The notes under the pieces were generated by a model, which made no database searches, had not been told where the DNA came from, and worked only from the letters and a program-made list of their open reading frames with translations. Shown here in pieces: positions 32,484-39,854 of a stretch of 64,000 nucleotides of DNA. The stretch comes from a bacterium (GTDB lineage: Bacteria; Patescibacteriota; Microgenomatia; UBA1400; UBA12108). The number at the start of each line of letters is the position of its first letter. The first letter of the stretch is position 1. The stretch covers positions 2,847 through 66,846 of the forward strand of contig JBDRPO010000004.1 of the NCBI GenBank assembly GCA_043827085.1, read 5' to 3'. A program made the position numbers and the translations under genes.

Positions 32484-33161
32484 ATGCCAATCAGGAAAGC
32501 CCCACTCGTTACAGGAGAGTATTACCATATATATAATCGTGGCATCAATCGGCGCCGGACTTTCACTGCCGAGAATAATTATCGAGATTATAATCGCGCC
32601 ATTCAAACCCTTGTCTACTATCGCCCCACAACCAATAAATTGAGATACTCCCATTTCCTAGCTAGGCCCAAGGACGAACAAAAAGACATTCTAACCAAAC
32701 TAGCAGAATCACCCCATAGAGTTACAATCATTGCCTACTGTCTCATGCCAAATCATTTTCACCTTCTCTTAAAACAAGAGGAAGATGGGGGGATCTCCCA
32801 GTATTTAGCCGACTTTCAAAACAGTTACACCAAATACTTCGACTCCAAACATAAACGTTCAGGCGCTCTTTTTGACCGCCAGTTTAAAGCAGTACTCATG
32901 GAATCTGAAAATCAATTGCTCCACTTGACTCGCTATATTCATCTCAATCCCTATTCATCCAATCTAGTTACAAATGATCAAATCGCTTCTTATCCATATT
33001 CATCACTACCTGAGTACTTATCAGGCAACTATCATCTCGCCAATCCAGGGGTAGTGTTGGATATCAATCCTCGCCGCTACGAGTCATTCGTCCTAGACAA
33101 TGCTGACTACCAACAGCAATTAGAACGTCTCAAACACGTCAGTCTCGATCTAGAAGTATGA
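32484..33161 (+). CDS. IS200/IS605-like HuH Y1 tyrosine transposase (REP-associated tyrosine transposase / RAYT-like)
   Basis: N-terminal YHIYNRGINRR, HuH motif HFHLLL and a catalytic Tyr in RYIHLNP. 225 aa, larger than IS200 TnpA, as in RAYT-type proteins. Confidence 0.7.
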   Translation: MPIRKAPLVTGEYYHIYNRGINRRRTFTAENNYRDYNRAIQTLVYYRPTTNKLRYSHFLARPKDEQKDILTKLAESPHRVTIIAYCLMPNHFHLLLKQEEDGGISQYLADFQNSYTKYFDSKHKRSGALFDRQFKAVLMESENQLLHLTRYIHLNPYSSNLVTNDQIASYPYSSLPEYLSGNYHLANPGVVLDINPRRYESFVLDNADYQQQLERLKHVSLDLEV

Positions 33162-33200: not shown

Positions 33201-33491
33201 ATGTTTAGTATTATGAAACAAAAAATCGTCGTTAGCAATGTCAGGTTCCCTTATCAAGATTGGATTATGGTAAAATCCGGGGCAGCTAACATGGGAATGA
33301 GCATAAATGAATACTTTCAGTACTTAGCCAATACCGACACCATAAAACAAGTAACCGGCACTAAAAAAATCATTCCACATACCAATCGTGAGAAAGCCTT
33401 CTCCGAATTATTTAAATTCGCGAGCCGTAAAGTAAAAGGCAAACCCATGGGGGCAAATGAAGACGATAAAATAATTTATGGCATCAAATAA
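33201..33491 (+). CDS. Ribbon-helix-helix (CopG/Arc-like) antitoxin
   Basis: VRFPYQDWIMVKSGAANMGMSINEYF matches the RHH beta-strand/helix pattern. A 14-bp perfect palindrome CATACCATGGTATG (33192-33205) overlaps the start. Overlaps the downstream PIN gene. Confidence 0.5.
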   Translation: MFSIMKQKIVVSNVRFPYQDWIMVKSGAANMGMSINEYFQYLANTDTIKQVTGTKKIIPHTNREKAFSELFKFASRKVKGKPMGANEDDKIIYGIK

Positions 33492-33888
33492 TATATTTAT
33501 CGATACAAGTTGGTTCAAGGCATTAGCTGATCCACAAGATAACTTTCACGCAAAAGCCTTAACTCAACTACAAAACTTTTCCCAATCAACCAATTTTATA
33601 ACCACCAATTTTATTTTAGATGAAACCCACACCTTAATTCGAGTCAAAACTGATCTAGAGTCTGCTCTCAATTTTCGTACTCTTCTGACCAAATTAGGAA
33701 TTATTCTCAAAGTTGTTCGAGTACTGGCCCAAGACGAATTCAAAGCTTGGGATTGGTTCCCTAAGCAGTGGAAGCGCTTATCATTTACGGACTGTACCTC
33801 TTTTGCTGTCATGCAAAGACTCGATCTAAAAGATGTCGCTACTTTTGACGATCACTTCTCCCGTGCTGGCTTTAATATGTTATCCTAA
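33478..33888 (+). CDS. vapC: PIN-domain toxin (VapC family)
   Basis: IFIDTSWFKAL...LDETHTL...FTDCTSFAVM PIN acidic-residue pattern. Confidence 0.7.
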   Translation: MASNNIFIDTSWFKALADPQDNFHAKALTQLQNFSQSTNFITTNFILDETHTLIRVKTDLESALNFRTLLTKLGIILKVVRVLAQDEFKAWDWFPKQWKRLSFTDCTSFAVMQRLDLKDVATFDDHFSRAGFNMLS

Positions 33889-34752: not shown

Positions 34753-35299
34753 TTCCCGAGATATACCCCATCGGGTTCATCATTTTATTTCCCTGCAGCA
34801 CCTCAAAATGTAGGTGTGGTCCAGTGGTCCACCCGGTCATTCCGACTGTCCCTATCTCTTCTCCTCGGCTAACCTTATCCCCTGGTTTTACCCTCACTTT
34901 GTTCAAGTGTGCATACAAACTAGACATCGTACCATTGTGCGCAATCCGGGCGTAGTGTCCATATCCCACTCTCATTTCCTCGACCTCAATGACGATTCCC
35001 GCGTCCATCGCCAGTACCGCCGTCCCTATGGGTGCACGCAAATCCACTCCTGGGTGGAGTAGGTGATATCCTTGCGACATTCCGAGTGTAACCACCAGGG
35101 GGAATTGATACTGAGTTTGGGTGGTGATGACAATAGCTTCGTTAGCTCCATTTTGAGCTGATTGTGCCATAGCGTAGTCAAACGCATGAGTAGGGGAGAT
35201 CGCGATAGACAAAGCCATCGCCACCCCAGCCATCTGGACTCCGACCGCGCGGTGTGCTGAGTTTTTCTTGAATATCTGCCATTTATGTACTGACTTCAT
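34742..35299 (-). CDS. M23-family metallopeptidase (LytM-like), secreted
   Basis: HPGVDLRAPIGTAVLAMDAG..V.......GYGHYARIAH....SLYAHL and HLHFEV motifs (HxxxD / HxH). Signal peptide after MKSVHKWQIF. Confidence 0.8.
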   Translation of the reverse strand: MKSVHKWQIFKKNSAHRAVGVQMAGVAMALSIAISPTHAFDYAMAQSAQNGANEAIVITTQTQYQFPLVVTLGMSQGYHLLHPGVDLRAPIGTAVLAMDAGIVIEVEEMRVGYGHYARIAHNGTMSSLYAHLNKVRVKPGDKVSRGEEIGTVGMTGWTTGPHLHFEVLQGNKMMNPMGYISGKFQ

Positions 35300-35493
35300 A
35301 TTTGGGGTTAATCTAGCCCCTGAAGTGCGTGATCCTAGCAAAGAATGTCGATTTGTCAATCAAATTTTGTTTTTTTCCCAGGCAGAAACCAAGTAATCCC
35401 AGAGGTAAATACATAAATATATCAAAGTATATCAAAATGTCTTAGAGGACCGTCCTTAAGACGAAAGGACAGTCCTCGTGGTACATTAGAGGT

Positions 35494-36567
35494 ATGCAAT
35501 CTTTCGCCATCAATGGTTTTGGCCGCATCGGCCGCCTAGCCACCCGGGTTTGGTGGCAATATCATCGTGAAGAACTCAAACTCTCAGCCATCAACACTTC
35601 AGGTTCTATGGATATCACCGGTTGGGCACATCTCCTCAAGTACGACACCACCTATGGCCTTTTCCCTGGAGAAATTGCTTTCGAGTCATACCAATCCGCC
35701 AAAGATGCCACCGACACAGATCCCCTCATCGGATACCTAATATTTGATACACAATACAAGGTACCTGTCTTCGCCCAGCGAGATCCTGCTAAAATCCCCT
35801 GGGGAAAGTATGAAATCGAGGTCGTTATCGAATCAACTGGCGCCTTCACGAGTGGTGAGAAAGCCAAGGCCCACCTCACAGGTGGTGCAAAACAAGTTGT
35901 CATCTCAGCCCCAGCCAAGGGGGGTAATGTCCCGACTAGCGTTATTGGTGTCAACGAAGAAAAAATCGTCAGCGCCGACCACCAGAACACAATCGCTGTT
36001 CTCAATAACGCCAGTTGTACTACCAACTGTGTCGCCCCCGTCGCCCTCGTCATACAAGAGCGCCTAGGGATCGCCAAAGCCGCCATGACCACCATCCATA
36101 GTTATACTGACGATCAAAACCTCCAAGATGCCTCCCACAAGGACTTGCGCCGCGCTCGGGCAGCCGCCCAGAATATTGTCCCTACTACGACTGGGGCTGC
36201 CATTGCGACTACCGAAACGATACCCGAACTCAAAGGTTTATTTGATGGGATTGCCCTCCGCGTCCCCACAATTACCGGCTCTCTCACTGACTTTAGCTTT
36301 GTCGTGAAGAGAAAAACCACGGTCGATGAGGTAAATAACTTCTTCCGCCAGGCCACGCTCATGGATAACCTATCCGGCATTCTCGCGGTCACCGACGAGC
36401 CAATCGTCTCCTCCGACATCATTGGCCACCGCGAATCCGCCATTGTTGACCTCGCCCTCACTCAAGTCATTGACGGTGATCTAGTTAAAGTTTTTGCCTG
36501 GTATGACAACGAATGGGGCTATTCAAACCGTCTTGTTGAAACTGTGATCGACATCGCCAACGCCTAA
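35494..36567 (+). CDS. gap: Glyceraldehyde-3-phosphate dehydrogenase (type I)
   Basis: INGFGRIGR N-terminus and the active-site ASCTTNC motif. Confidence 0.95.
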   Translation: MQSFAINGFGRIGRLATRVWWQYHREELKLSAINTSGSMDITGWAHLLKYDTTYGLFPGEIAFESYQSAKDATDTDPLIGYLIFDTQYKVPVFAQRDPAKIPWGKYEIEVVIESTGAFTSGEKAKAHLTGGAKQVVISAPAKGGNVPTSVIGVNEEKIVSADHQNTIAVLNNASCTTNCVAPVALVIQERLGIAKAAMTTIHSYTDDQNLQDASHKDLRRARAAAQNIVPTTTGAAIATTETIPELKGLFDGIALRVPTITGSLTDFSFVVKRKTTVDEVNNFFRQATLMDNLSGILAVTDEPIVSSDIIGHRESAIVDLALTQVIDGDLVKVFAWYDNEWGYSNRLVETVIDIANA

Positions 36568-37325
36568 ATAAGCCCAAGAGCTTTTTTCACCCTCGGCCCC
36601 ATTAAGTGATCTTTATACTCCAGATATTTCTGATATTTATACTTAAGATATGGTGCCTTATCCAAATCATGATACATGTAGTCCAAGATATTTACAGCCT
36701 CTACACTATGGCTAATTAAATTGAAATCCCCGCACGATTTATACATTCGCGGTGATTTGATATTCAATAAACTACTAATTTCATCAGCAAGTTCATTTAA
36801 AAAAGCAATGCTACCACTGGAATATATTACACTTAAACGATTTGTCATTCTTCCCTTAGCCAAATATAAATTAATACACCCATCGCCGTCGAAATAACCC
36901 CTCAGAAAATATGAAAAATACTCGATAGGAATAGTAGGTAAATGCATAGTATTTGATTTACGGTGAGTCATTCCCAAATTAATCAAATCTTGATACATAA
37001 CCTTGTTCCCCATTTTTAGTACATAGCCCTCGCGTGAGGTATATTTTCCATGCCTGTGCTGCATCAGTCGGGGTGGCCTAACATAAATTGCATGTTCAGA
37101 GTTTAGACAAAGCTTAATTTTACTTAGTAATTCAAAATCATTATTACTGAATAACAGATAATACGTTCGACTAGATTTATTAGTATCGAGCAAAGATCCA
37201 TCAGCAAACATAAATCCAAGGACATATGCCATGTTCGGAGTCCACGTTTTGAAAAAAACTTCATTTACTTTTTTACGATTATGCCCACCTCTAGGATCTC
37301 GTACCATACTTCTAGTATTACCCAA
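36564..37325 (-). CDS. LAGLIDADG-family homing endonuclease (double-motif, free-standing)
   Basis: Two LAGLIDADG motifs (LGFMFADGSL and LRGYFDGDGCI), 253 aa. Markedly AT-rich relative to its neighbours. Its stop overlaps the gap stop. Confidence 0.85.
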   Translation of the reverse strand: MGNTRSMVRDPRGGHNRKKVNEVFFKTWTPNMAYVLGFMFADGSLLDTNKSSRTYYLLFSNNDFELLSKIKLCLNSEHAIYVRPPRLMQHRHGKYTSREGYVLKMGNKVMYQDLINLGMTHRKSNTMHLPTIPIEYFSYFLRGYFDGDGCINLYLAKGRMTNRLSVIYSSGSIAFLNELADEISSLLNIKSPRMYKSCGDFNLISHSVEAVNILDYMYHDLDKAPYLKYKYQKYLEYKDHLMGPRVKKALGLI

Positions 37326-37353
37326 ACACTACCCGAAGTCAACATCAAAAATG

Positions 37354-37426
37354 AGGCCCGAGGGAGATTCGAACTCCCGCATAAGAGTTTTGCAGACTCT
37401 CGACTTGACCTCTTGTCTATCGGGCC
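37354..37426 (-). tRNA. tRNA-Cys (anticodon GCA)
   Basis: Manually folded: acceptor GGCCCGA/TCGGGCC, D arm with GG, anticodon stem AGAGT/ACTCT with loop CTGCAAA, T arm GGGAG-TTCGAAT-CTCCC, discriminator U73. 73 nt, no encoded CCA. Confidence 0.9.
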
Positions 37427-37447
37427 ACAGCAGGTATTATAACCCAA

Positions 37448-37474
37448 ACAGAGCCCTGCCTTGTAAGCAGGGCT
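37448..37474 (-). terminator. Stem-loop (GAGCCCTGC-N-GCAGGGCTC) downstream of hsp20, likely intrinsic terminator
   Basis: 9-bp perfect stem followed by a U-rich run on the minus strand (TGTTTGGGTT). Confidence 0.5.
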
Positions 37475-37500
37475 CCATTCCTCAATTACTATCTCCAATC

Positions 37501-37899
37501 CTACTTTTTTATCGCAATTTTTTTCGGTTTAGCTTCTTCTGCCTTTTTGAAAGTGACGCTGATCACTCCATGCTTCACCTTGGCTTCAGGCTCAGTTGAA
37601 AGATCGATGTTGCCAGGCACCGCCACACGGTATGCGTAAGAACGGCTCGATTTTCGATAAAACTTCTTGTCTTCCTTCTCTTCCGTTTCCTCGGCTCCAG
37701 TAATCGTAAGCACTCCCTTCTCAAAAGTAATATCAACTTTATCAGGGTCAACCCCGGCCACAGCCGCTCTCACTACCACCTCATCTTTGGTTTCATAAAC
37801 ATCGAGATTATCTCCCACCTCGGACGTGAAATCTTCATCATCCCAAATATTTGGCCAGCGCAGTAGCGCTCGGGTAGGATCCCAGCGAATAATTGCCAT
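37501..37899 (-). CDS. Hsp20/alpha-crystallin small heat-shock protein
   Basis: Alpha-crystallin domain (DVYETKDEVVVRAAVAGVDPDKVDITFEKGVLTITG). Confidence 0.9.
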   Translation of the reverse strand: MAIIRWDPTRALLRWPNIWDDEDFTSEVGDNLDVYETKDEVVVRAAVAGVDPDKVDITFEKGVLTITGAEETEEKEDKKFYRKSSRSYAYRVAVPGNIDLSTEPEAKVKHGVISVTFKKAEEAKPKKIAIKK

Positions 37900-37958
37900 A
37901 TATACCTCCTTTGGTCTTCCGTAGCTTCAGCACAGGAGACCTCTAAACATTTTATTAA

Positions 37959-37985
37959 CTGGCAGTCCCAGGGATAGACTGCTAA
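37959..37985. promoter_or_regulatory. CIRCE-like inverted repeat (CTGGCAGTC-N9-GACTGCTAA) upstream of hsp20
   Basis: 9-N9-9 architecture. Right half matches CIRCE GAGTGCTAA with one mismatch; the left half is degenerate. Confidence 0.35.
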
Positions 37986-38053
37986 ATGAAATATAAAACA
38001 GGGTAGGGGGTTTGTCAACACCCCACTTTCATCCTGTGGTAACATAAGTTCGT

Positions 38054-38929
38054 ATGCAAAAACTCTTTCTTGTTCTAATTTCAGCCATCCTTCTCGCTGG
38101 TTGTACCCCCAAAGATCTTTTTGTAAAACCCCCTGCCGGACTTGAGATTGCTACCATTCCAGCTTCCACTGTCTTTCTCAACGGTGTAAGCAAAGGCGAA
38201 ACCCCTTACTCCGACAAAAATCTCAAACCTGGCACCTACACCCTCAAACTAATTCCAACTGGCACTCCTCTTCCTGCCCATGAAATCAATCTAACTCTGA
38301 CCTCCAAAGCCTCGACCATTATTTCTCGCACTTTCGCAGAGTCCGATCTGGATTCATCAGGATACACCCTTGAACTAAAAGAAGAGGCCTCAGGTGGCAC
38401 CTACCTCTCGGTCATTTCTGATCCCGATACCGTCAATGTAACAATCGACGATAAACCGAGCGGCTTCACTCCTCTCTCTAAACTTCCAGCTAGTCCCGGT
38501 ACTCACTCGATTACAGTCAACTCGCCAGGCTATACAGAACAAATCCTCTCCGTAAATACCGTCAAAGGCTATAATCTAGTAGTCAACTTCAAACTAGCCG
38601 GAGTCAATATCACCCTCGCTCCCTCCGAACCAGCCACACCCTCCGCCTCACTGAGTCCTTCCCCCTCACCTTCATTATTATCCTCCCCCACACCATCAGA
38701 TGAATCTTCAGTCAGCTTCCCAAAACCCTACGCCCTAATCGGTGAGACCGGTACTGGTTGGCTCCGGGTCAGAAAAGAGTCTTCTGGTACATCCGAGGAA
38801 TTAGGCAAAGTTGATACCGGCGAGAAACTCAAATATCTGGGTGAAAGTACCGATCTCGGTTGGCACAAAATCGAGTTCGAAGGCTCTGTCGGCTGGGTTT
38901 CCGGCAAATATGTAACTTTAGTTAAGTAA
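38054..38929 (+). CDS. Lipoprotein with PEGA-like repeats and C-terminal SH3b domain
   Basis: Lipobox LLAGC, two to three VxLNGVSKGETP-type PEGA segments, a Ser/Pro linker and a C-terminal SH3b-like WLRVRKESSGTSEELGKVDTGEKLKYLGE..GWHKIEF. Confidence 0.5.
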   Translation: MQKLFLVLISAILLAGCTPKDLFVKPPAGLEIATIPASTVFLNGVSKGETPYSDKNLKPGTYTLKLIPTGTPLPAHEINLTLTSKASTIISRTFAESDLDSSGYTLELKEEASGGTYLSVISDPDTVNVTIDDKPSGFTPLSKLPASPGTHSITVNSPGYTEQILSVNTVKGYNLVVNFKLAGVNITLAPSEPATPSASLSPSPSPSLLSSPTPSDESSVSFPKPYALIGETGTGWLRVRKESSGTSEELGKVDTGEKLKYLGESTDLGWHKIEFEGSVGWVSGKYVTLVK

Positions 38930-39854
38930 AGTATAAAATTGCAACTACCATCACTCCCCACAGCCCCACTACAAACAGAAGTGGTTTATCCGACATAATC
39001 ACCTTGTGTGGACTCTCCCCTTCGTTCTTTTCGTAAATTAACTGCATATAACGCATCACCCCAAAAATCACAACTGGTATCGTCGCCATTAGCCACTTAT
39101 CCATTATCAAAGTTCTCGGCAACAAAGAAAATAATTTGAGCACCTTTCCCTCTGCCGTAAATGGTGGGTGGAGGAATGTGAAAAACGCATACGTAAGCCA
39201 AGTAGTATTGGCAAACATTGAGGTATACGCGTCAAGTAATACTGGTGTGTAATGTATTAGGGTAGCTCTCAATTGTTTTGCCTCAATCTTTGACCCAGAC
39301 AGAAGCGTCATCTCGCTCCTTCTTTTCCCGACTGCCAAAAATAAAGATGCGGACACGACGGTGAGGAGGAACCATACATCCATGTGTACATTAATCACAA
39401 AACTGCCCGCATATATTCTCAGCACAAACCCAGCAGCTATCACAAACACGTCCAGTATTGGCACCTTCTTCCACCAAAGTGTATATAAAATATTCAACAA
39501 AAAGTATGTCCCCATCGCAGCAAAGAAAAACGTTGATGTCATAAGTGCCAACCAAAGAGATATCCCTCCAAGGAAAATAAACAAGAATATTGCTAAATCT
39601 ATCGGCATCTTTCCGCTAGCAATTGGTCTATTTTTCTTAAAAGGATGTTGTCGGTCGCTAGGTATATCGACGATGTCATTAAAAACATATATTGAAGATG
39701 ATAGTAGACAAAACAATATGAATGCCCAGACAACTTTAGGAAAATATCCCGGTACGAACAAAAATCCCGAAAAAATAATTGGTGCAAAAACCACGATGTT
39801 TTTGATCCACTGAGTCACTCGGATTGATTTGAAGACAAGAATAAGTTTATCCAC
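38922..39854 (-). CDS. UbiA-family prenyltransferase (decaprenyl-phosphate phosphoribosyltransferase-like)
   Basis: NDIVDIPSDRQHPFKKNRPIASG (NDxxDxxxD ... KxxRPxxSG) and 8-9 TM helices. Confidence 0.65.
   Translation of the reverse strand: MDKLILVFKSIRVTQWIKNIVVFAPIIFSGFLFVPGYFPKVVWAFILFCLLSSSIYVFNDIVDIPSDRQHPFKKNRPIASGKMPIDLAIFLFIFLGGISLWLALMTSTFFFAAMGTYFLLNILYTLWWKKVPILDVFVIAAGFVLRIYAGSFVINVHMDVWFLLTVVSASLFLAVGKRRSEMTLLSGSKIEAKQLRATLIHYTPVLLDAYTSMFANTTWLTYAFFTFLHPPFTAEGKVLKLFSLLPRTLIMDKWLMATIPVVIFGVMRYMQLIYEKNEGESPHKVIMSDKPLLFVVGLWGVMVVAILYFT

Follow-up and report, generated by a model that had tools for sequence, protein, structure and literature searches.

The 64,000-nt stretch of bacterial DNA analyzed here (the window; positions given without a locus name refer to it) carries a free-standing gene for a two-motif LAGLIDADG endonuclease between tRNA-Cys(GCA), the sole tRNA gene that ARAGORN and Rfam found in the window, and gap, which encodes GAPDH. 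Homology searches identify this gene as a member of a Patescibacteria-wide family of free-standing LAGLIDADG genes. The family is apparently undescribed: in the literature consulted, rRNA insertions are the only location described for LAGLIDADG genes in this phylum, and we found no tRNA-flank family there. The neighboring genes and their named homologues point to a position of the window within the Microgenomates (Woesebacteria-like) of the candidate phyla radiation. We consider it fairly probable that the gene encodes a free-standing homing endonuclease that is long resident, frequently lost, and probably active and that occupies the flanks of tRNA genes as its niche, because the active site is conserved throughout the phylum, the gene is dispensable in the nearest relatives, and the link between protein clade and tRNA identity is strict. 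The pattern seen at the level of the family is of more interest than the single gene in the window.

Endonuclease gene and protein

A first-pass annotation made from the sequence alone had reported an open reading frame (ORF) with two LAGLIDADG motifs between an intact tRNA-Cys(GCA) and gap, with its end overlapping the gap stop codon. These statements were borne out: both motifs are present (Table 1), the cutoffs of two Pfam families are passed (LAGLIDADG_3, PF14528, 31.5 bits with a cutoff of 22.5; LAGLIDADG_1, PF00961, 24.0 bits with a cutoff of 23.1), the tRNA is recognized by both ARAGORN and Rfam, and the stop codons of the two convergent genes overlap in a shared CTAA. In the ORF listing, the maximal form of the minus-strand ORF starts at a TTG codon and comprises 253 amino acids (36564..37325). 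However, translation almost certainly begins at ATG 37307, which gives a protein of 247 amino acids beginning with MVRDPRGG, because nearly all homologues and the NCBI gene call begin there; TTG 37325 falls within a conserved promoter-like element. The distance between the tRNA and the ORF is therefore 45 nt and not the 28 bp given before.

The window ORF is a member of the single-chain, two-motif type of LAGLIDADG endonucleases. Its closest profile match was phrog_4645, labeled "endonuclease" (3e-40), and the sequence matches to PDB entries (I-HjeMI and I-Tsp061I) were weak. An AlphaFold2 model based on 30 homologues had a predicted local distance difference test score (pLDDT) of 90.9 and a predicted template-modeling score (pTM) of 0.88 and displayed a pseudodimeric fold with two alpha-beta-beta-alpha-beta-beta-alpha domains. 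The best Foldseek matches of this model were I-Tsp061I, I-AniI, bI3, I-HjeMI, and E-DreI, all of them single-chain LAGLIDADG enzymes except bI3, which is a maturase; the top entries (2dch, 1p8k, 2ab5, 3uvf, and 1mow) all had a probability of 1.00 and template-modeling (TM) scores of 0.5 to 0.68. No domain other than LAGLIDADG, and no Hint domain, was detected in a Pfam scan of the window protein.

Across the phylum, the Asp residue of motif 1 is kept in 76 of 77 full-length family members and that of motif 2 in all 77, and the sequence RGYFDGDG is essentially invariant among them. The window protein is full length, retains all conserved positions of the family, and contains the conserved basic segment RDPRGGHNRK at its N terminus. 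The encoded endonuclease is thus intact and probably active. The activity of LAGLIDADG endonucleases is site-specific double-strand cleavage that leaves 4-nt 3' overhangs.

Family size and distribution

A word-indexed search yielded 301 relatives of the window protein, and a profile search of 1.84 billion representatives yielded 960 clusters at E values of ≤1e-30. At least 499 loci were confirmed in species-representative genomes of the GTDB; they span Woese-, Davies-, Shapiro-, Collier-, Moran-, Kaiser-, Wolfe-, Yanofsky-, Doudna-, Berkel-, and Andersenbacteria, among others. Free-standing LAGLIDADG genes, which had been called rare in bacteria in the first-pass annotation, are thus not rare in this phylum. 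In addition, more than 560 relatives were found on viral (phage) contigs.

Presence and absence among close relatives

Close relatives were sampled independently of the endonuclease gene by means of UbiA (80% to 86% identical to the UbiA of the window), and nine contigs were looked up. Two of these end at the junction and are uninformative. Among the remaining seven, the site is filled only in L291, which is the same species as L001, and it is empty in six (L288, L289, L290, L294, L295, and the P0342 contig), where gap comes immediately after hsp20 and tRNA-Cys. The empty tRNA-Cys/gap junction that the first-pass annotation had proposed to look for in related genomes therefore exists, and because of it the gene is optional and potentially mobile in this lineage. 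The same annotation had stated that an old, fixed gene, present at this position in all relatives, would speak against its reading: the gene did turn out to be old, as described below, but it is not fixed. Fixation had to be rejected as a product of ascertainment bias, as it was suggested by loci that had been found through the gene.

The 785-bp segment absent from the empty sites consists of exactly the promoter and the ORF; it extends all the way from the 3' end of tRNA-Cys to the stop codon of gap and interrupts no host ORF. In L288, the tRNA-Cys 3' end and the gap stop codon share 2 nt, and the 3' half of the tRNA-Cys gene is nearly identical to that of the window. Carriers and noncarriers of the gene are intermixed on the flank tree, a distribution that requires either several gains or a minimum of three clean losses. 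A remnant of the cassette or its promoter, seen by eye in the 45-nt spacer of the empty site of L289, was discarded because the local alignments were no better than those of shuffled sequences. In a metagenome scan with a tRNA-Cys pattern, which is not specific to the phylum, the gene was present at 2 of ~110 tRNA-Cys loci, a figure that is uninformative on its prevalence.

Of the nine contigs chosen by UbiA, three break off at the tRNA-Cys junction or close to it, namely, L291 (inside the LAGLIDADG ORF), L292 (inside tRNA-Cys), and L293. The assembly may have been interrupted there by polymorphism of the site within populations.

Association with tRNA-Cys and tRNA-Asp genes

Among 82 nonredundant loci, 78 were informative, and a tRNA gene lies within 120 bp of the endonuclease gene in 76 of these (51 tRNA-Cys and 23 tRNA-Asp). 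In the relatives examined first, tRNA-Cys is directly upstream in every case. The layout found in Microgenomates has tRNA-Cys 37 to 61 nt upstream on the same strand, as in the window, and in one sub-clade of Microgenomates tRNA-Cys is 80 to 104 nt upstream on the opposite strand. Outside the Microgenomates, the ORF of most lineages is directed into tRNA-Cys and stops at positions -23 to +14 relative to the tRNA 5' end, and tRNA-Leu(TAA) comes next. In a second protein clade, the ORF runs into tRNA-Asp(GTC), usually behind tRNA-Met. A neighbor-joining tree divides the family into two deep clades, one Cys linked and one Asp linked, and the proteins with the Microgenomates layout form a single clade nested among others. 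The linkage to tRNA genes is a property of the chromosomal family, because only 1 of 80 loci of the phage relatives, which served as a control, adjoins a tRNA gene.

The two exceptions (L046 and L052), and in addition L058, have an intron-split tRNA-Asp gene directly downstream of the ORF. These three tRNA genes were missed by ARAGORN and were found through Rfam and by reading the sequence; each contains an ORF-less group I intron (Table 1), and the LAGLIDADG ORF is outside that intron. Introns of this kind in tRNA-Asp were described by Nakagawa et al. and were reported without endonuclease genes, and the flanking gene is not mentioned there (PMC13011429). An enrichment of intron-bearing tRNA-Asp genes beside the Asp clade was considered (3 of 26 versus 3 of 95 complete genomes in PMC13011429) and dropped, as the counts are too few.

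Some members of the Asp clade, as well as phrog_4645, have an extra N-terminal region of ~90 to 100 amino acids that the window protein lacks (e.g., P0156, P0159, P0161, P0178, and others; L035, L040, L054, L073, and L086). This region may be an added DNA-binding module.

The tRNA genes themselves vary. In 21 of 51 tRNA-Cys genes (L001 to L087 and L288 to L294), the T-loop starts with TGC and thus has G in place of the near-universal U at position 55, and the D-loop of these genes has AG instead of G18G19 (e.g., L027, 3581-3654). The TGC T-loop was also seen in 6 of 26 tRNA-Met and 3 of 30 tRNA-Leu(TAA) genes, whereas all 26 tRNA-Asp genes lacked it. The class of the tRNA-Cys T-loop is not uniform among close relatives of the window. 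A role of G55 as a resistance allele specific to the endonuclease-linked tRNA was rejected, since tRNA-Met and tRNA-Leu genes have it too and its occurrence does not match the presence of the gene.

Composition and divergence

The window gene has a GC content of 0.35 and a GC content at third codon positions (GC3) of 0.32, whereas GC3 is 0.41 to 0.56 in seven neighboring genes. The AT richness noted in the first-pass annotation is thus real, but it fails as a sign of foreign origin: among 81 loci from the whole phylum, the gene has a lower GC3 than its neighbors in 95%, by 0.13 on average, and low GC3 is therefore a trait of the family and not a mark of recent entry. Homologues occupy the same slot across the Microgenomates, and endonuclease identity to the window drops in step with that of the neighbors. 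In L001, the endonuclease is 68% identical to that of the window, with gap at 82%, hsp20 at 70%, and the M23 peptidase at 58%; the corresponding values are 57% for the endonuclease, 71% for gap, 72% for UbiA, and 52% for PEGA in L002 and 44%, 62%, 55%, and 36% in L011. The protein tree mirrors the flank trees, in a small sample analyzed by neighbor joining only. Taken from composition and divergence, our conclusion is that the gene is an old resident of the lineage and not a recent arrival.

Promoters and transcription

A promoter scan detected a promoter-like element immediately ahead of the ATG codon (Table 1). In all 17 Microgenomates loci, the arrangement is TTGAC-17/18 nt-(G)GTAATAMT followed after 6 to 7 nt by ATG or GTG, irrespective of the orientation of the tRNA. 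Loci of the Parcubacteria type have an analogous TTGCAG...TATAAT-N6-start arrangement. Because the spacing between promoter and start is so short, the endonuclease mRNA is predicted to be leaderless or nearly so.

The -10 regions of the endonuclease promoter (37313-37328) and the tRNA-Cys promoter (37435-37450) have a 16-nt string in common (88% identical), which reads TGTTTGGGT-WATAMT on the minus strand. The conserved promoter spacer TTTGGGT had been considered as an operator for self-repression, but this was rejected, and the string is probably generic promoter architecture because the tRNA-Cys promoter of the window carries it also.

Promoter-like hexamers are also conserved in the last ~60 nt of the ORFs upstream of tRNA-Cys in L017 to L087, for example TTGATA-N16-18-TACAAT or TATAAG. 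If these were real tRNA promoters, deletion of the gene would strip a single-copy tRNA of its promoter. In the same set of loci, the ORF upstream of tRNA-Cys often stops at the TAG in the tRNA D-loop, and gene callers therefore run ORFs across tRNAs (e.g., P0026, 304 amino acids).

Gene neighborhood

The gene order around the endonuclease gene is GT4, UbiA, PEGA/SH3, hsp20, tRNA-Cys, LAGLIDADG ORF, gap, M23 peptidase, and pyrH. The GC-rich hairpin after the hsp20 stop codon is likely the hsp20 terminator, as its sequence suggests. Just past pyrH there is an ORF for an IS200-like Y1 transposase (Table 1); relatives hold differing small accessory genes at this spot. A small ORF in the window overlaps the ORF of a PIN domain protein, the two probably forming an antitoxin/VapC toxin pair (Table 1), and L295 has PIN, CopG, and nucleotidyltransferase/HEPN genes in the corresponding position.

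Table 1. Coordinates of features at the LAGLIDADG locus (positions in the 64,000-nt window) and of tRNA-Asp genes in three related loci
Feature	Sequence	Position	Strand	Description
LAGLIDADG endonuclease ORF	Window	36564..37307	-	247 amino acids, ATG 37307 to TAG 36564-36566; P0001 is 100% identical (247 amino acids)
LAGLIDADG motif 1	Window	37194..37220	-	LGFMFADGS (VLGFMFADGS); acidic residue D36 (247-amino-acid numbering)
LAGLIDADG motif 2	Window	36879..36905	-	LRGYFDGDG (LRGYFDGDGC); acidic residue D142
Promoter-like element of the endonuclease gene	Window	37314..37342	-	TTGACT, 17 nt, AATACT; promoter scan; ends 6 nt before ATG
Segment present in the window and absent in relatives	Window	36568..37352	-	Promoter and ORF; empty sites in L288, L289, L290, L294, L295, and the P0342 contig
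tRNA-Cys(GCA)	Window	37353..37426	-	Intact, no encoded CCA, canonical T-loop; ARAGORN; Rfam, 62.7 bits
-10-like hexamer, putative tRNA-Cys promoter	Window	37436..37441	-	TATAAT, 9 nt before the tRNA 5' end; predicted from sequence; same arrangement in relatives
gap (GAPDH)	Window	35494..36567	+	Convergent with the LAGLIDADG ORF
hsp20	Window	37501..37899	-	Conserved neighbor upstream of tRNA-Cys; ORF listing; same in relatives
GC-rich hairpin	Window	37451..37476	-	gagccctgc-ttacaa-ggcagggctc, after the hsp20 stop codon; read from sequence; also in L001 and L291
IS200-like Y1 transposase ORF	Window	32484-33161	+	PF01797, 6.8e-10
Small ORF, probable antitoxin	Window	33201-33491	+	
PIN domain protein ORF, probable VapC toxin	Window	33478-33888	+	PF01850, 7.8e-10
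tRNA-Asp(GUC) with ORF-less group I intron at 35/36	L046	4692-4960		RF00028, 50.6 bits
tRNA-Asp(GUC) with ORF-less group I intron at 35/36	L052	4655-4935		RF00028, 29.4 bits
tRNA-Asp(GUC) with ORF-less group I intron at 35/36	L058	4669-4998		RF00028, 35.5 bits

Proposed mode of persistence

The gene stands alone between tRNA-Cys and gap, with its own conserved promoter and start. As a homing endonuclease gene, it would form a minimal cassette, made up of its own promoter and a leaderless ORF and bounded by the 3' end of the sole tRNA-Cys gene on one side and by the stop codon of gap on the other. In alleles that lack the cassette, the enzyme would introduce a double-strand break within the tRNA gene or at the tRNA-Cys/gap junction, which is split by the cassette in carriers. 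When competent cells have taken up an allele with the cassette, repair from this allele would copy the cassette in, which amounts to intron-less homing. Among close relatives, this process would preserve the nuclease function, and deletion would repeatedly regenerate empty sites. The flanks of tRNA genes would be suitable for this mode of life, as the tRNA offers a conserved target and its processing by RNase P and RNase Z would make insertions in the flanks harmless. The likely target would be either the tRNA gene or the cassette-split junction.

A wider proposal is possible, which we put forward tentatively. The family would be an ancient LAGLIDADG family of Patescibacteria for which tRNA flanks, neutral through RNase P and RNase Z, serve as a third harmless insertion site besides introns and inteins. 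Each clade would recognize its own tRNA gene (Cys or Asp), deletion would be hindered in loci with the tRNA promoter inside the ORF, and the Asp clade would mobilize in trans the ORF-less introns at position 35/36 of tRNA-Asp. If true, this action of the Asp clade would explain the spread of introns that were reported without endonuclease genes (PMC13011429).

Several observations weigh against a homing endonuclease. The protein tree is congruent with the flank trees, and no direct sign of transfer, as expected for horizontal movement, was seen. Vertical descent with at least three losses would explain the pattern without homing. At the empty sites there is no recognizable remnant of the cassette, and gain therefore cannot be told apart from loss. 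We also considered a fast evolution of tRNA-Cys to escape cleavage; however, its divergence equals that of the adjacent tRNA-Leu(TAA) (0.718 versus 0.717 in 435 genome pairs), so that there is no mark of selection for such an escape. Finally, loci L001 to L087 were found through the gene itself and are uninformative on its prevalence.

Alternative explanations

We regard it as rather unlikely that the gene product is a domesticated host protein, inherited vertically under ordinary selection, with a role related to tRNA genes (for example in regulation, recombination, or repair there) or in defense against phage DNA. Known domesticated LAGLIDADG proteins, such as WhiA and the organellar maturases, have lost their catalytic acids and gained a helix-turn-helix (HTH) or RNA-binding role, whereas the tRNA-flank family retains the catalytic Asp residues. 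A host function would be consistent with the phylum-wide distribution and the invariance of catalytic and structural residues, with a divergence that keeps step with the neighbors and a tree congruent with the host, with the conserved dedicated promoter, with the strict link of each clade to a tRNA identity, and with the Parcubacteria-type ORFs that overlap the tRNA 5' end and hold promoter-like hexamers for the tRNA. However, six of the seven closest relatives are cleanly without the gene and have no replacement for it, so it is dispensable in this lineage, and the persistently aberrant GC3 is more typical of selfish than of core genes. In addition, an NCBIfam search of the window protein gave no family match, and the single PADLOC match was weak and to a generic homing endonuclease (4.7e-4).

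It is improbable that the gene is a decaying relic, that is, a former homing endonuclease gene that is nonfunctional and awaits deletion. This would agree with its frequent absence in relatives and with a few family members that look frame-broken (L024 and L084), but the window ORF is full length with both catalytic Asp residues and every conserved family position, its promoter is conserved, the AlphaFold2 model is confident, and the family is conserved throughout the phylum, which implies that purifying selection continues.

The first-pass annotation had favored a recent horizontal arrival, in which a foreign gene landed at tRNA-Cys because tRNA genes are integration hotspots. This now appears very improbable. 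The AT richness relative to the flanks, the absence in most close relatives, and the existence of phage relatives are compatible with it, but the word-indexed homologue search detected no near-identical copy of the window protein elsewhere that could be a donor: the best nonself homologues are 68% to 72% identical and occupy the same slot in related genomes, and the phage relatives are just 27% to 40% identical. The agreement of the protein tree with the flank tree and the low GC3 in 95% of family members, whatever the host, also contradict a recent acquisition. Nor does the locus bear signs of integration, as there is no integrase within the 785-bp segment and no flanking repeat, the tRNA 3' end is single copy in the window, and a 13-nt inverted repeat (I2), examined together with possible att-like duplications, is no longer than chance pairs. 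The association with the tRNA follows protein clade, as a property of the family, and not a general preference for tRNA genes as hotspots.

An intron- or intein-encoded endonuclease that is free-standing in appearance only, which could have been expected since rRNA introns are the main known source of LAGLIDADG enzymes in this phylum (PMC11270868) and some Asp-clade relatives adjoin intron-containing tRNA-Asp genes, is already refuted at this locus, in agreement with the earlier annotation: there is no group I intron match (Rfam RF00028) in 35000-39000 at E values of ≤1, only 45 nt of noncoding DNA surround the ORF, the tRNA-Cys is uninterrupted, the gene has its own promoter, start, and stop with no Hint domain, the insertion is exactly promoter plus ORF when compared with the empty sites, and even in L046, L052, and L058 the ORF is outside the intron.

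Significance and comparison with known systems

Homing endonucleases are thought to persist inside introns and inteins or, in phages, between conserved genes. The present locus points to a phylum-wide chromosomal lineage that resides in the flanks of single-copy tRNA genes, with its active site kept and with clean gain or loss. If these enzymes cut tRNA genes or their junctions, they would be a driver of recombination in naturally competent organisms with tiny genomes and a candidate for the missing mobility function of the ORF-less tRNA introns of Patescibacteria. They would also be a natural source of hundreds of divergent single-chain LAGLIDADG proteins usable as scaffolds, the tRNA-derived targets of which could be predicted, and would explain some of the contig breaks in metagenome assemblies and the annotation errors in which ORFs are called across tRNA genes.

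The window protein resembles the group of I-Tsp061I, I-AniI, I-HjeMI, I-DmoI, and I-OnuI in being a two-domain monomer with both motifs and both catalytic Asp residues. Unlike these single-chain enzymes of introns, to which it is 12% to 21% identical, it is not intron borne and has the basic N-terminal segment. The LAGLIDADG genes in rRNA insertions of candidate phyla radiation bacteria (PMC11270868; PMC7143001; PMC11809585) share the phylum and the superfamily with the window gene. However, they are located within introns or insertions of 16S and 23S rRNA genes, whereas the window family is free-standing in tRNA flanks and is not mentioned in these three reports. The phage proteins of phrog_4645 differ from the window protein in their additional N-terminal part of ~90 amino acids, in sequence (27% to 40% identity), and in their near lack of tRNA adjacency (1 of 80 loci).

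Intron-less homing in general has been described before (PMC6083498; PMC2790892). In collaborative homing, a free-standing endonuclease gene is found beside a gene with an ORF-less group I intron, as for F-CphI next to the intron-containing psbA of cyanophage S-PM2 (PMC6083498) and for T4 mobE with I-TevIII (PMC2790892). L046, L052, and L058 resemble these pairs in that the free-standing gene adjoins a gene with an ORF-less group I intron, whereas the tRNA-Cys of the window has no intron, and the window locus is therefore not such a pair.

The best functional analogue is SegB of phage T4, a free-standing GIY-YIG homing endonuclease encoded in a tRNA gene cluster, the site of which includes the conserved tRNA T-arm (PMC2330249). 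Both are stand-alone endonuclease genes among or beside tRNA genes and are optional among relatives, and homing of SegB drags the flanking tRNA region along. SegB differs from the window gene in its GIY-YIG catalytic fold and in being phage borne, whereas the window gene encodes a LAGLIDADG protein, a putative homing endonuclease, and is located on a bacterial chromosome. Unlike SegB, the window family is tied to one specific tRNA per protein clade across the whole phylum.

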